A DNA stretch of 62,439 nucleotides, filler included, from Perkinsus olseni (Eukaryota): NCBI GenBank assembly GCA_013115125.1. It is 18 parts of 18 records of this genome, joined end to end, with 100 filler letters (N's around TTAATTAATTAA, not from the genome) between each part and the next. Parts side by side here need not be neighbours in the genome. Positions count along the whole stretch, not along the records: positions 59,121 to 62,439 come from JABANN010001422.1; 17 more parts are not named here. One strand, written 5' to 3'. The notes beneath the pieces were generated by a model. That model was given only the letters and a program-made list of their open reading frames with translations, was not told where the DNA came from and did not search any database. The translations under genes and the position numbers were made by a program. The stretch's first letter is position 1. Every line of letters starts with the position of its first letter. Shown here one piece after another: positions 3,544 through 62,439 of the stretch.

Positions 3544-6500
3544 GTGAATGGGTGGGGGTGGGATCGACGCTTTTCCACCGTCCACCAAGTGGTTGGGTCT
3601 AGTGGATATCGATGGCGTGCTCGAGAGCTACAAAATGGTGAGAGTAAGGATACCCCAACCCAACGATATTGTATTGAGGTCGACTCCCCCTATGATGCTG
3701 CGACCTTGAGTAAGATCCCGACGAGGAAAGATTATGGTGGCCGCATGGTGGGTCGGCTTTCGCCGCAAGATAAGGATCTATATGAGAAAGAGGTGGCTAA
3801 GTATGTTGATAAAGGGTGGTGGCGTGTGGTTGGACCTGTTACCACTACTCCGTATTCGTCGAGTGCCTTGGTGGTGTTTCCGGTACGGTCCCGGAAGCCC
3901 GGTGCCAGTACTCCCATAAGGCCTGTTTTGGATGCCCGCTTGAGGAATATTCATGGCCCGGCGAGTTCTTACGAAGGCCCTTGTATTGATGCCATTTTAT
4001 TGAATATTCGTCTTCGGTGGCATCCTCAGTCACGGGTTTTAACCCGTGACGCTTCGAGCGCTTTCTACCGCGTTCGTATGTCACCATCGTCCATGGTGGA
4101 ACTACTGGCTGATGGTATGGTCTATCATAGTTGGAGGTTGTGTTTTGGTCTCCGAGCTGGACCATGCTGTTTATGGTCGGCCCTTACATTTGTCCTGGAC
4201 GTTAGTATAGCAGAGCTTCCTGCTGACATGCGCTCGCGATTATTTGGTTGTGCCTTTTATTTGTATCTTGATGACCTTACTCTGGTTATTGATGGAGGTG
4301 CCGACCCGGAGTCTTCTCTGGCTGAAACTATTATCTCCAAGGTTGTCGAGGTTGCTGCACGTTACGGATTTGATTTCCCCGAGATCAAAGGATATGATAG
4401 TGTCAGTATCCATCGTTTCAAGCATCTTGGTATATGGTGGGAATTTGATGAAGGAGATCTCTCTTTCTCGTGTCCTAAGTTTACGCTGGGCACTGTGAAA
4501 AATGCTCAAGGTGAATATAAAACTTCCTGGACGCGCAGGGAGTTGTATTCTGTGGCGGCGTGCGTTAGTAGTGGTTGTGATCCTTTGCTGATTCATGGCA
4601 AAGAACGGCTGGCCGGAGATGTCCTCAAGATACTATGTGGCTATGTTGGTAAAAACAAAGATTGGGACGAGTCTTCCGAGATCGACACTCGAGGTCCTTC
4701 CTATAAGGTGCTATGCTCTTGTATTAAGGTGATTGAAGACCATGTAAAGCAACAATGTCATCACCCAGTTCAACACCCTGATCAGCTCGAGGTCCATGTG
4801 GACGCGAGCTCTATAGGTTGGGCATGGGCGATGTTTGGCGTCTCTACCGTCACTGGCGATTCATGGTTGATTCAGTCAGCTGCAGGTGTCTTCAAGACCA
4901 AAAATCAGAGAAGCTCGCATATAAACAGAAAAGAACTCGCCGCCCTCGCCAAGGCCATGGTCGCGGTCCACGCGGCCCTATCCGGTAAACGTCAGCGTCC
5001 TCTCATCCCTCTGGTCAAGGTATGTTGTGACTCTCAAACGGTGGTCAGATGGACGGCATCAAATGGTATTCGATCTTCCAGTAAGAGTTTGGAGAGAGTA
5101 ATTGTCCGTCGTCTGATTCAATCCATCAGAGAGATCATGGACGATCTCCGCTCTGTCGGGGTCAACTTCAAGTTGGAGAAGGTGACCAGCGAGGACAATC
5201 GAGCAGACTCCCTTAGTAGAGCGGCGAGTGATTGGGGGTTCGACCAATTGGAGATCTCTGATCCGAGTGATGATGCCGCTCTCTTCCCTGCTTCAGAGGC
5301 AATTCATGCTGTGCAGGGGGATGAGCGTGATAAGTGTGCACAACCCGACTTGCCTGTCGGGGCGACGGCACGAGAAGCTGTGCGGTCTCTTCAAGAAAAG
5401 TCTCCTTTGTGGAGTAAGGTTGTGGTATATCTCAAGACTGGTGGTAAGGCTGACCCTAAGGTTCTGCATGCGGCTCAGGAGAAACGTATTGATTCAGAAG
5501 GTCTTCTGGTGGCTTTGAGGTATCCAGGAGGATCGACTTTGCAATCTCCACGCGAGGTCATCGTCATCCCTTGCGACTTTGACGAGGGAAAGGCCGAGGC
5601 TCTTCGGATTATCAAGGTTTTCCATGAGTCCACTCATCATAATGCTAGATATTTATCATGGGAAGTGTCTCGGTTTTTCCTTATCGATGGTTTAGCGCGA
5701 TTGGCGCGTTTGGTCTGTCAAGGTTGTGAAAGATGCCAAAATGCTATAACTACCCGATTTTATGCCGGGGCTATGGGCTTTACTGATACCACAGCTGCGT
5801 GTGTGTGGGATGTGGTGGCCTGCGATATTGCAGGGCCCTTTAAGCCCGATAAGGATTATGGTTTTGTGGCTGCGTTGGTATTAATAGATATGTATAGTCA
5901 TTATGTAATCATTCGAGGGCTTCGTGACCAACGCACTATTACCATATGCTCGGTTCTGGGGGCCGTTATCCATGAGCTGGGGGCGATGAGACAGCTAAGA
6001 TCGGATGGAGCTCCAAATCTTACTTCTCGCCGCTTTCGGCAGTTTACTGCCTCGGCGGGAGTGGAGCATGTTGTTGCTAACAGGTATTCACCATTCCAGA
6101 ATGGAATGGTAGAAAAATCCATTAGCAATATAAAAACGGTTCTACGTCTTTTCCCCGAGGTTTTGAAAGCTAAGCACTATGGTACTTCTCATTGGTATTC
6201 TGTTATGTGCCGAGCAGGGAGGAGGGCTAATGATCGCCCATACCTTGGTACTACGCCCTTTGCTCTATGGTTTGGTCGAGAACGACGTCCAGAAGAAGTG
6301 GCACGGTTGTCTACGAAGCCTGAAGATAAGTCTGTGGAAGGCGTAAGTACTGAGAGAAAGGCTAATCAAGGAGAGTTTGATGTTGCCCGTTCTGAGCGAC
6401 AGTTACCTCGTCGATATGCACCACGATCTCTTAAGGTATCAGTTGGTAGTAAAGTGAAGATTTTTCGCCCTAATCAAGCCCCTGGTGTCGGTCATGCCTC

Positions 6501-59120: not shown

Positions 59121-60532
59121 GCGTGAGTTCAAGAGAGTCGAAGCCCCACCAGAAGCAGTCATCGATAGGGTTGCCTTCGTTCAAGGGCTCTGGTCGGACT
59201 GATCAGGAGGTTGATCCGAACTCTCCTGCGAGAGCATCGGTTCCTCCACGAGGTGATTCGGCCCCGGCGGTCTTGTATGCCATACCTCCATCCCAATCAC
59301 ACGTCGAGGTGGGGACCACGGGGGGCTATGCGCCGTCTTTGAAGACGGAGTTTCATAGTGTGGGTTCCCGTGGAGAGTTGTCGAAAGCTCGCATACTCTC
59401 ATCAGCACCGAGTGTGGATTTGACGTTGACGGGAACCGCTCATCGCCCACACCCGGGAAGCTTGCCTTATGAGGTGAGGGATCGCTCGGGCCCTAAGGGG
59501 ATTGATCCGTCCCGTTTGAAGCTGCCCAAGTGCACTGAGGCTCTAGAGCTCGCGGCACATTTTGAGGTCTGCGAGAACATCTTTGTGGAGGCCAGGGTCG
59601 GCGTTTTCGTCGGGGAAGGTCAGGGCCGTCAGTTCAGGCCTTACGGCGATGTACATGTCTCGTGCATCGAATCCTTCCTGAGAACCTTGCCGGAAGGGGC
59701 CATACAGAGCAGTGCCAAAAGGACGGCAAGAAAGCTGGGATGGTCGTGGCAGCATCTCCGTCACAGCGTCGTCAGACGCTACGGTCGACGGTCTGCCATA
59801 GTCGATGAGCTGTCGAAGTTGCTCCGACAGCTGGAGTTCTCCTCCCCATCGGAGGTGGACGCCTTCCTGGAAAAGTGTGAGGCGATCATGCACGCTCTGG
59901 AAGCAGCCTATGGCCAGGATAGGAGCGAGACACGTCGGGTGGTGAAGCACATCATCGGCACCTTACCACCGCACATTGCCACTGAGATCATCAGGGAGAT
60001 CAAGCAAACGGTGGGGATGGCCTCGGCGATGTCGAGAAGAATGGCGATGGACTGCGACTGGGAATTGCTGCTGCCGTTCGTGCCGAGCTTCAGTCCTGGG
60101 GAGGAGGAGATGATGTCGGTGAGTGATATCATCAGGGATGTGTGTCGGACCATAGAGAGTGGTGACCCGGCATCCCAGCTGTCTGATAGGGTGGCTTATG
60201 CTGGCGACAGCAAGGCACGGGAGGGCAGTTCCCGGGGGAAGGCTCAGGGAGGTGGCTCCAAGGGGAAGGTGCCGCTGGACTCCTGGGCGAAGGGATACGC
60301 TGCTGTGTACGTGGTTCGTTCACAGTCATCAAAGAAGAGGCTCGACTCGGAGGCGATCAAAAAGGAGTTCGACCCGGACGTCACCAAGTTCATCCGGGGC
60401 AAGAAGCAGCCGCTCGCATTGATCGGCTACACAGATGTGGCGAAAGGGAAGGCGGCGGCAGAGAGGGGCTCAGCCAAGGAGGAGTACTCCATCCGTCCGT
60501 TCCAGTTCCGAGCTGGCTCGGGAAACGAGTAG
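59121..60532 (+). CDS. gag: Gag-like ORF without CCHC knuckles, C-terminal RRM-like domain (5' end may be cut)
   Basis: 469-aa frame directly upstream of pol, with a helical capsid-like middle region, ending at G GGA AAC GAG TAG. Confidence 0.8.
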
Positions 60533-62439
60533 GGCCGGCATGTCCAAGGGGGACAATGTCGGCCGAAATTCAAACCCCTTATACTCTCGCTTCTGAATCC
60601 AAGCCCGATGAGGCTAGGTCAGAAGAGGGAGAGAAGTCTGAGGAGGGAGAAGGAGGCACCACAGTTATCAATGAGGTCCTGATGGAGCCCGTTACGGGGG
60701 CGATCGGGGGTCCTATTCATGATAGAGTGTGTTCCTTGCAGCTGAAGATCCCTCCTGAGCTGACGGTCCTCTGTGACTTGATATCGAGTAGTGATCCGTC
60801 CAAGCGTCAAGTGGATGTCACGGCCATTTGTGATCCGGGCGCGGGGAGGTCCTACTGGATTTCGTCTGATGATTGCGAGACCACCTTTCCGACGGAGCCC
60901 ACGAACCGATGGGTGGAGTTGGCAGATGGGTCCAAGTGTGCAATCAATCGCAAAATCAGGGTCCACGTGTCGCTCAAGAAGCCGGAGGCAGCCACGGTAG
61001 GCCCAGTCGAGTTTCTTGTCCTTCCCTACGAGCAGAGTAGGCTAGGGGGCAGTTACCGCCTACTCATTGGTAGGGATCTGGGGGGCTACTTAGGCCTTCA
61101 ACTTGACCTTGGAAAAGGTCTGGTCTCGGTGGGCGACGGTCGTACCGAAGAGCATCGCGGGGCTCTGTCCGACTCTCAGAGTGGAGACGAATGTGATCTT
61201 CTGAGATATCTGGGAGTGGATGCTCCTGGGGTGGTGGCACAGCCAGAGCCAATAGCATCGGATACTCATCTCGTACCTGAGCTAACTGAGGAGTTACAGC
61301 AGGTGAGCGAGCGAGTGATAGGTGAGGTGGCGAGTAGTGGAACTATCAAGTCTCCGGAGCTGCCAGGGTATCGACTGTACGCGAGGGAGCTCGCTGCAGG
61401 CGACATACGAGACTGTGCTCAGCAGCGCGCGGCCATCTTCGTGGAACTTCCACCAGTGACTGGGAGTGTTCCGAGGGTCCAGCGCTATGCACATTCGCTG
61501 TACACGAAGTTATCCTCCGAGCATCAAGCGACATACGGGAAGCTCATCGATGACTTTGTGCAGCGGCAATGGTGGTGGAGTGAGCGAGACATCCCGGACA
61601 GCGTGAAAAGCCGTCAACGACTACCAGAAAGCCCTTGTTTCCTTACGCAGCTGACGAGGAAACCAAGGTTAGTGGTGGACTGCAGGGTCGTGAATGCGGC
61701 GTTGGGTCGCGCTAGTTCGCTGAAGATTAAAGTCACTGCTCAGCTTCTCTCTATTCGTGCCGACGGGAGCTGTTGTCTTCTCACGGCAGATGTGCAACAA
61801 GCATTCTATAGGTGTCGGGTGACCAATTATTTGATCCCCCTACTGACCGCCGTGGGTCTCTTCTTCTCATTGAGGGTCATTTTTGGCCTGAACGGAGGGG
61901 CGGGGATTCTGCAGTTGGGACTCGGAGAGATAGTGGAGAAGGCCGTTCGCAGTTTCGCTAGTCTAGAGTGGGTGCAAAAAGCTTTCTGTAGCCATCTGTA
62001 TATGGATGACTGGACGGCACACGGCTCCGACTTGCGGACTGTCTTACATCTCTTCGCTCTGACCATCTTCTGCATGCTGCTATTCGGTTTCGCGAGCCAG
62101 CTGGCAAAGGTGGGAGCTCTCATTCAACCGAAGGATCGGGCACTGTTCGATGCGGTGTGTGCTAATCTTCGGATGAGCATCCCGGTACTAGAGGAGGTAA
62201 GCCTACTGGGGGTGGGGGTACGTCTGGCCGACGGTGAGATCGAGGTCGATTGCCGTAGGCTAGCGAAGTGGTCTCAAATAGAGATATTCTTAGAAGATGA
62301 CCATCCCACGAAGAAGAAGGCCTTCTCGGTAGCTGGTATCATTGGCCACGACAGCCTGTACGCGCACCCTGAGTGTCGCCTAGCGGCAGATATACTGAGG
62401 GCGATAACCGGGCGATGCTACAGTCAGGTCTCGTGGTCG
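60520..62439 (+). CDS. pol: Pol (protease-RT) in the -1 frame, running off the window (absent from the ORF track because it has no stop)
   Basis: Protease-like AICDPGAGRSY and LLIGRD. RT: KPRLVVDCRVVN, ADVQQAFY, IFGLNGG, YMDD at 61999. Shares GYRLYAREL and HPECRLAADILR motifs with contigs 2 and 6. Confidence 0.9.

Follow-up and report, generated by a model that had tools for sequence, protein, structure and literature searches.

An RRM-like domain predicted at the nucleocapsid position of a Gag without zinc knuckles in Perkinsus olseni

Which module holds nucleic acid in a Gag protein that carries no zinc knuckle? Zinc knuckles are treated as near-universal in retrovirus-like Gags, and the known exceptions use disordered basic tails. 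The question is raised by a gag-like open reading frame (ORF) in the DNA of Perkinsus olseni, which belongs to a genus of oyster and clam parasites. The stretch that we analysed (62,439 nucleotides from assembly GCA_013115125.1; hereafter, the window) is made up of contigs of about 3.4 kb, strung together in falling order of length and separated by linkers of the form N44-TTAATTAATTAA-N44 (18 counted, from 3418 to 59120), so that features on opposite sides of a linker have no physical linkage. The gag-pol junction is carried by the last piece, a 3.3-kb contig (59121–62439, JABANN010001422.1) that comes after the linker at 59021–59120. A sequence-only reading had proposed that this Gag ends in an RNA recognition motif (RRM) instead of the usual CCHC knuckles. 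Our models make an RRM-type fold of the Gag tail very probable, and we consider it somewhat probable that this domain is the nucleocapsid (NC) equivalent, i.e., the nucleic-acid-binding module, of Gag. The parts of the protein are listed below with the AlphaFold2 (AF2) predicted local distance difference test (pLDDT) values, or the tools, on which they rest.

59123–60532, plus strand: gag-like ORF (P0001), 469 aa followed by a TAG stop; truncated 5′ by the contig edge (the linker ends at 59120)
59123–59494, plus strand: predicted disordered Pro/Ser-rich region, residues 1–124 (pLDDT 40–59)
59495–60166, plus strand: putative capsid (CA), two helical lobes, residues 125–348 (AF2, VIA-align)
60167–60271, plus strand: predicted disordered Gly/Ser/Lys/Arg linker, residues 349–383 (pLDDT below 50 at 349–360, 362–364 and 366–379)
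60272–60520, plus strand: RRM-like domain, residues 384–466 (AF2, VIA-align, Foldseek, and a PDB profile match to a PABP RRM)
Elements within this domain: helix 385–390 (with W388), beta1 394–400 (AVYVVRS), alpha1 409–416, beta2 420–424, beta3 431–436 (LALIGY), alpha2 439–450, beta4 455–459

The ORF is open from the first bases of its contig (59121/59123) and begins at the contig edge, so its N-terminal part is missing; a P. olseni fragment of 100% identity (P0004) and a P. chesapeaki homologue (P0003) show about 120–140 additional N-terminal residues. The sequence-only reading had described a complete Gag C-terminus, which is correct for the C-terminus but not for Gag as a whole. In the gag frame, 60290–60512 translates as KGYAAVYVVRSQSSKKRLDSEAIKKEFDPDVTKFIRGKKQPLALIGYTDVAKGKAAAERGSAKEEYSIRPFQFR (residues 390–463 of 469, KGYAAVYVV...YSIRPFQFR), identical to the tail that had been read there before, and the Gly/basic linker noted ahead of the domain is indeed present as PASQLSDRVAYAGDSKAREGSSRGKAQGGGSKGKV.

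Two AF2 models carry the assignment of the fold. Alignment A1 joined the last 83 residues of the window's Gag to 36 full-length relatives (37 rows, with query columns that appear sound), and alignment A2 covered the whole ORF (63 rows). From A1, the 83-residue domain was modelled with a pLDDT of 83 and a predicted template modelling score of 0.70, as strand 8–14, helix 23–30, strand 34–38, strand 45–50, helix 53–64, and strand 69–73. From A2, the same domain appeared at residues 394–459 of the 469-residue Gag, with block pLDDT values of 86–97. The predicted topology, beta-alpha-beta-beta-alpha-beta, is of the RRM type and is the layout that had been proposed from the sequence. We compared the domain by VIA-align with 48,161 representative solved chains, and 49 of the best 50 matches were RRMs (Z 9.1–7.5), the sole exception being a homoserine kinase at rank 43. 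The first places were held by NELF-E (Z 9.1, root-mean-square deviation (rmsd) 2.1, 70 aa), Pub1 (Z 9.1), RRM2 of PABP1 (Z 8.6), and SYNCRIP (Z 8.5); when the whole Gag was searched, the same RRMs were matched by residues 382–466. In Foldseek, RRMs hold the highest TM-scores (0.60–0.72), with ACT, PII-like, and Lrp domains interspersed, mostly at 0.29–0.55 and, for one ACT-domain chain, at 0.57. The best two Foldseek matches in the viral library BFVD were also RRM proteins, one from a giant virus and one from a baculovirus (E 1.1e-3 and 3.3e-3), with no Gag among the 50 matches listed. Profile searches, which are independent of structure, point weakly in the same direction. Indeed, the only PDB match of the A1 profile was a PABP RRM (7zhr_B, E 0.036), in which the family's beta1 is laid on VYVKNF and its beta3 on KGFGFVAF, segments that we take, from the consensus, to be RNP2 and RNP1; the A2 profile gave weaker RRM matches (PABP, E 0.18; nucleolin, E 1.3).

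Several results weigh against this assignment. The VIA-align Z of 9.1 is modest by itself, and the tool cautions that best Z values of 7–8 are common for models without clear relatives; we place the weight of this model-based comparison on a single family filling the list, not on the height of Z. Foldseek gave no PDB match for the domain at E ≤ 1e-3, and its first rows were the ferredoxin-like, non-RRM protein MzrA (E 3.3e-3, TM 0.51). The Pfam RRM models were unmatched by the window's protein, which had no Pfam match at E ≤ 10. The missing Foldseek match, the caution on middling Z-scores, and the silence of Pfam would all suit an artefact of prediction, the tail being in fact a generic small alpha/beta or disordered segment, as ferredoxin-like arrangements are common. 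But two independent AF2 runs on different alignments produced the same six elements at high confidence, one family and not a ferredoxin-like mixture occupies 49 of the 50 best VIA-align places, and the independent profile search, whose only match was an RRM, set the two central strands on the RNP motifs. We consider such an artefact the least probable of the explanations weighed here, and we retain the RRM-type fold.

The place of this domain in Gag is given by what precedes it. On the modelled structure, we read the helical part of Gag as a two-lobed CA: block means of pLDDT are 81–98 over residues 121–340 and 77 for 341–350, and the part is helical with one small hairpin. Its best VIA-align match is the Drosophila Copia capsid (8vvw_A) at Z 8.6, with 173 of 184 residues aligned to model residues 131–348 at an rmsd of 6.1. 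Other matches are the CA C-terminal domains (CA-CTD) of murine leukaemia virus (6gza, Z 7.5), PEG10 (7lga, Z 7.5), and the Ty1-derived Drt2 (9rxy, Z 7.1), the CA of Rous sarcoma virus, and both lobes of dArc1 (6s7x and 6tap, Z 7.0 and 6.8). These Z values are modest for helical domains; the matches are all retroelement capsids, with both lobes in order. The likeness comes from VIA-align only, since Foldseek with the whole Gag against the PDB returned neither a match at E ≤ 1e-3 nor any capsid, and phmmer with Gag against PDB sequences gave nothing relevant. The RRM-like domain follows the CA-CTD and a flexible basic linker and, hence, stands at the nucleocapsid position. No zinc knuckle stands there with it: a scan for C-x2-C-x3-5-H-x3-5-C was empty for the window's ORF and for all 70 proteins searched (68 family proteins, P0001, and the window's Pol), which bears out the earlier remark that this Gag is without CCHC.

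Does an RRM fold at this place bind RNA? RNP2 has the consensus [ILV]-[FY]-[ILV]-x-N-L on beta1, and RNP1 the consensus [RK]-G-[FY]-[GA]-[FY]-[ILV]-x-[FY] on beta3. The sequence-only reading had set RNP2 on AVYVV and RNP1 on the segment with LALIGY; the two segments do form beta1 and beta3, but the RNP1 is only half-canonical. In the window copy, V-Y-V-V-R-S fits the first three RNP2 positions, and K/R at RNP1-1 and an aromatic at RNP1-8 are found in 20 and 28 of the 38 family copies, respectively. A net positive charge is carried by 37 of the 38 copies (median +5, median pI 9.5), and the beta2-beta3 loop is K/R-rich in most of them. Moreover, Gly/Arg-rich tails come after the domain in P0011, P0030, P0036, and P0063, with a shorter Gly-rich tail in P0064, a pairing of RRM and RGG-like tail that typifies RNA-binding proteins of the cell. 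The fold, place, and charge of the domain lead us to infer that it would bind RNA.

Some features of the same copies speak against a canonical RNA-binding face. Beta3 of the window copy, Q-P-L-A-L-I-G-Y, keeps RNP1 position 8 only, with Leu at the positions that we align to RNP1-3 and RNP1-5; an aromatic residue is found at RNP2-2 in 17 of the 38 copies, at RNP1-3 in 27, and at RNP1-5 in 5. The best conserved residue of the domain is W388 (30/38), in the short helix just before beta1, from where it might lie against the sheet and block its face. One RRM_occluded match at noise level was found among 63 family members (E 0.038). The poorly kept RNP1 aromatics, the conserved W388, this RRM_occluded match, and the K/R/G-richness of linker and tails would favor a pseudo- or occluded RRM, i.e., an RRM/ferredoxin-like fold serving protein-protein contacts or assembly, with RNA bound mainly by the linker and the Arg/Gly tails. 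The RRM-like domain of PNMA2, modelled in exterior spikes and with a function given as unknown (PMC10945824; PMC10516033), favors it too. The folded domain of Perkinsus is itself basic in nearly all copies, including its beta2-beta3 loop in most, which argues against leaving RNA binding to the flanks. It is also attached to the C-terminus of the CA-CTD, which is the genome-facing side in solved retroelement capsids. We regard a pure assembly module as unlikely, though to be kept in mind, and prefer the RNA-binding domain.

In the mechanism that we propose, Gag would consist of a coiled-coil N-terminus (off the contig), a disordered region, a two-lobed capsid, a Gly/basic linker, and a basic RRM-fold domain. 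The latter would occupy the place of the nucleocapsid zinc knuckles of most retroelement Gags and would bind nucleic acid, aided by the basic linker and, in some relatives, by the Arg/Gly-rich tails. Its attachment to the C-terminus of the CA-CTD would turn it towards the inside of the particle, where it would hold the element RNA during assembly and reverse transcription.

Is the domain a property of one copy or of a family? Judged by sequence comparison, the gag ORF is a real coding sequence, because its homologues share 57% identity with it in P. chesapeaki (P0003, 775 aa, word-indexed search) and 82% in P. marinus (over the C-terminal half, with the same ...SGNE end, profile search), and because 65 representatives match it at E ≤ 1e-3, including 27 at ≤ 1e-10 and 5 at ≤ 1e-30 (HMMER, 1.84 billion representatives). 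The profile search added further P. olseni proteins, and the named homologues (6 of 7 profile matches, plus 2 from the word-indexed search) all come from P. olseni, P. chesapeaki, or P. marinus. A search for longer, fused homologues gave none at E ≤ 1e-3, a scan of metagenome contigs with three close sequences gave 168 pattern matches and zero relatives, and the ESM Atlas returned no usable match for the 85-aa tail.

Using residues 390–469 as the seed of a local jackhmmer search, we found the RRM-like domain in 38 of 67 family proteins and in 34 of the 45 A2 proteins with 90 aa or more after the capsid end. The domain is therefore conserved in related Gags, as the earlier reading had asked to be checked; of the two outcomes named there as refutations, a fold of another type and a lack of conservation, neither was obtained. 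The remaining 11 long proteins had no significant match in this first pass, which counts on the negative side. A relaxed hidden Markov model (HMM) built from the 38 copies and run without filters gave weaker matches in 10 of these 11 (full-sequence E 1e-4 to 0.5); with it, 47 of the 67 family proteins match at E ≤ 0.01, a value to be read against a tiny database. P0031 is without a match even by the relaxed HMM, a further point on the negative side, and seems to carry a deletion. Among the three Perkinsus species, the linker is the least conserved part, and the RRM-like domain is better kept: identities to the window are 73% in CA, 34% in the linker, and 52% in the RRM for P. chesapeaki, and 89%, 60%, and 84%, respectively, for P. 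marinus.

The N-terminus missing from the window can be approached through these relatives. In the family profile, the N-terminal positions gave weak matches to coiled-coil proteins of the PDB, and the relatives probably have a coiled-coil N-terminus upstream of the disordered region, off the window's contig. We also observed a conserved 'MVTA' at or near the N-terminus, followed by the coiled-coil-like segment, in P0003, P0004, P0007, P0023, P0024, P0036, and P0063. The motif might indicate the true start or reflect a signal in the nucleotide sequence, e.g., a primer-binding site (PBS) overlapping the start. The back-translated 11-mer has 2 one-mismatch matches in the window, with 1.16 expected, and the 5′ end of the element lies outside the window.

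Downstream, the RRM-coding part runs directly into the gag-pol junction, whose features are the following.

60520–60526, plus strand: candidate slippery heptamer GGGAAAC (G GGA AAC, of the form X XXY YYZ), the only such gag-frame heptamer in the whole ORF
60530–60532, plus strand: gag stop codon TAG (from the translation)
60533–60564, plus strand: GC-rich hairpin, candidate frameshift stimulator, beginning after a 6-nt spacer that contains the TAG
60190–62439, plus strand: pol frame, −1 relative to gag (P0002, 628 aa from the first ATG at 60556), with no stop before the window end

The heptamer ends 3 nt (one codon) before the TAG, and the 73 nt from 60518 to 60590 fold with a minimum free energy of −29 kcal/mol (z −3.38), a value reached by 1 of 200 shuffled sequences. 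The pol frame is open from 60190, which gives an overlap of 343 nt with gag, and the ...SGNE tail is kept in all three Perkinsus species despite variable residues before it. The arrangement is that of a textbook −1 programmed frameshift, and we take it as a candidate signal: ribosomes slipping back by one nucleotide on G GGA AAC, before the gag stop, would yield Pol fused to Gag. Initiation of pol at the ATG at 60556 is the alternative to frameshifting. Other members of the family are organized differently: gag and pol form one continuous ORF in P0014, P0051, P0012, P0027, and P0003, in which the RRM-like domain runs into the protease, and P0069 also has a long gag-pol ORF, whereas many relatives stop just after the RRM-like domain, like the window copy. 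Both expression designs seem to be present in the family, unless gene models have bridged a frameshift.

This proximity invites another explanation of the domain, namely that it serves the junction itself, as a spacer or a regulator of protease activation or frameshifting, or that its conservation comes in part from the overlapping pol frame or from RNA signals. The pol frame is indeed open over the whole RRM-coding part, the frameshift signal sits at the 3′ end of that part, and the domain directly precedes the protease in the single gag-pol ORFs of P0014, P0051, P0012, and P0027. But the −1 product upstream of the heptamer is of low complexity and without homologue evidence, the fold predicted in the gag frame is confident and compact, and the gag frame is conserved at the protein level across family proteins of 11–30% identity, including ones that stop right after the domain. 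We judge a junction role very improbable, and a nucleic-acid-binding role of the domain remains our preferred reading.

Public sequencing runs also bear on the junction. Among public runs, 20 from 10 studies contain half or more of the words sampled from this stretch, and we compared four of these runs (X1, X11, X15, and X20). The RRM-coding part is covered by contigs of two RNA-seq libraries from two studies (X15, 59604–60596; X20, 59862–60493), although a contig in an RNA library is not proof of transcription, and an X11 contig spans 59603–62196. No indel was reported anywhere in the compared contigs, including at the junction, which is crossed by those of X1, X11, and X15. The stop and the frame change might in principle stem from misassembly or from decay of the copy; the absence of indels in three independent runs, the same ...SGNE end in P. 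marinus, and the canonical slippery site make this less likely. With respect to the runs, gag has six substitutions, five of them non-synonymous and one of them in the RRM (K404E). At this position (60332), the window has A, whereas all four runs have G, and E is likewise present in P. olseni fragment P0006; the window therefore carries a rarer allele or an error.

To which class does the element belong? The motifs of the pol frame, by our own reading and all on the plus strand, are these.

60832–60846: protease DPGAG
61060–61077: protease LLIGRD
61777–61806: reverse transcriptase (RT) LLTADVQQAF
61882–61899: RT FGLNGG
61999–62010: RT YMDD

In the ESM Atlas, P0002 falls closest to clusters of retroviral Pol fragments (RVP+RVT_1+RVT_thumb) at a score of 0.94, although no more than 149 features are shared, and the pol profile had one PDB match, a caulimovirus-type 'Enzymatic polyprotein' (E 1.3e-5). 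Pfam searches with Gag, Pol, and their sub-parts gave nothing usable, the sole match being a chance one to 'Doppel'. In relatives, sub-threshold Pfam matches were obtained for RVT_1 in P0014 (E 0.0011) and for Integrase_H2C2 in P0051 (2030 aa, E 0.0026); we also read a putative D,D35E in P0051, for which phmmer against the PDB gave nothing at E ≤ 0.1. No long terminal repeat (LTR), PBS, or integrase was seen on the 3.3-kb contig, which holds a 5′-cut gag and the first 628 pol codons, and this weighs against a firm placement; the RNase H and integrase parts fall beyond the window end. Taken on these sequences, the element would be a very divergent retroelement of the Ortervirales type (LTR-retrotransposon or retrovirus-like), with the order protease-RT(-RNase H-integrase) and presumably flanked by LTRs.

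The sequence-only reading had assigned it to BEL/Pao, an assignment for which we find no support. DUF1759 (gag), Peptidase_A17, DUF1758, and DUF5641 are the Pfam models specific to BEL/Pao, and none was matched by the window's Gag and Pol or by the long relatives P0051, P0014, P0012, and P0003. Among the family members, what DUF1759 matches there are do not rise above noise: 2 of 37 members gave one at E up to 0.1 (best 0.0085, short of the curated cut-off), and 1 of 63 did so at E up to 0.05. Moreover, Belpaoviridae are described as metazoan-infecting (PMC8742986), whereas the named homologues are all from Perkinsus, an alveolate.

Two observations concern pol regions elsewhere. On another contig of the window (3604–4665, plus strand), an RT-like stretch has 27% identity to pol residues 271–627 (tblastn, E 4.9e-16) and looks like a second, distant element of the same kind. 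The last ~60 aa of P0051 and P0012, after the putative integrase, share a segment (…IRE[FW]KSGHV.[IV]RW.D…) without a Pfam match; it looks like a small Tudor- or chromo-like beta domain, possibly for targeting.

How does this Gag compare with known systems? The zinc-knuckle NC of Ortervirales (retroviruses, Ty3/gypsy, BEL/Pao, and many Copia) likewise comes after the CA-CTD and before the protease, is basic, follows a flexible linker, and is associated with a −1 frameshift signal. The Perkinsus family differs by the absence of CCHC and by a folded alpha/beta domain of about 80 aa in place of knuckles of about 14 aa. The C-terminal region of Ty1 Gag and the GR boxes of foamy viruses are cases in which CCHC was lost, and Gly/Arg/Lys-rich segments also flank the Perkinsus domain; unlike it, they have no folded RNA-binding domain at that position. 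Among non-LTR elements, L1-type ORF1p is made of a coiled coil, an RRM, and a CTD, and Jockey-type ORF1 of an RRM and CCHC. ORF1p resembles the Perkinsus Gag in using an RRM as the RNA-binding module of a structural protein, and the Perkinsus relatives also have a coiled-coil-like N-terminus. On the contrary, ORF1p has no retroviral-type capsid and its elements have neither protease nor integrase, whereas the Perkinsus RRM comes after a putative two-lobed CA and before a protease-RT pol.

A PNMA-type Pfam model exists, and no family of this type was found among the Pfam matches of the family members, so that a sequence link to PNMA was not obtained. The likeness to PNMA is one of structure. 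RRMs had been called typical of non-LTR ORF1 proteins in the sequence-only reading; they are not confined there, since RRM-like domains are also described in Gags of vertebrate Metaviridae and in PNMA (PMC10516033; PMC10945824). According to Henriques et al. (PMC10516033), PNMA and active vertebrate Metaviridae Gags carry an N-terminal RRM-like RNA-binding domain, in the order RNA-binding domain-capsid-NC, whose function is given as unknown; the work on the PNMA2 capsid locates it in spikes on the particle exterior (PMC10945824). Like Perkinsus, vertebrate Metaviridae (Ty3/gypsy, e.g., zebrafish Gypsy-12) and PNMA join an RRM-like fold to a retroelement capsid, and the fold was recognised by structure prediction, not by sequence. 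The RRM of MARF1/KIAA0430 (2DGX), a reported match of the PNMA domain, also matches the Perkinsus domain (Z 8.3, and Z 8.0 with the whole Gag). The domain of Metaviridae and PNMA is N-terminal to the capsid and, in active elements, stands beside a zinc-knuckle NC, whereas in Perkinsus it is C-terminal to the CA-CTD, in the place of NC. The Perkinsus family differs further by lacking zinc knuckles, by its alveolate host, and by a pol too divergent for Pfam. A limited search of the open-access literature gave no description of a C-terminal RRM in the Gag of an LTR element. The Perkinsus Gag is, on these comparisons, unusual and conserved; the union of an RRM with a capsid was already known in its N-terminal, vertebrate form, and the C-terminal variant at the NC position would be new.

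In its widest form, a possibility that we advance tentatively and hold to be somewhat short of even, the reading is that Perkinsus, and possibly other alveolates, host a deep, unclassified, integrase-bearing lineage in which a folded RRM has wholly replaced the zinc-knuckle NC and packages the genome inside the capsid. An LTR-element Gag would then have converged on the coiled-coil plus RRM design of LINE-1 ORF1p, and its domain would be the first RRM nucleocapsid of a capsid-forming retroelement. If a folded RRM does stand conserved at the nucleocapsid position, the genome-holding module of Gag would be exchangeable, and RRM and retroviral capsid would have been united a second time, independently of their N-terminal union in vertebrate Ty3/gypsy and PNMA. 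The family and LINE-1 ORF1p could also be set side by side, as a natural comparison, to ask how an RRM selects and chaperones retroelement RNA. Finally, Pfam-based transposon annotation is blind to this family; because both Gag and Pol are without a Pfam match, such elements are probably unannotated in Perkinsus genomes and perhaps in those of other alveolates.

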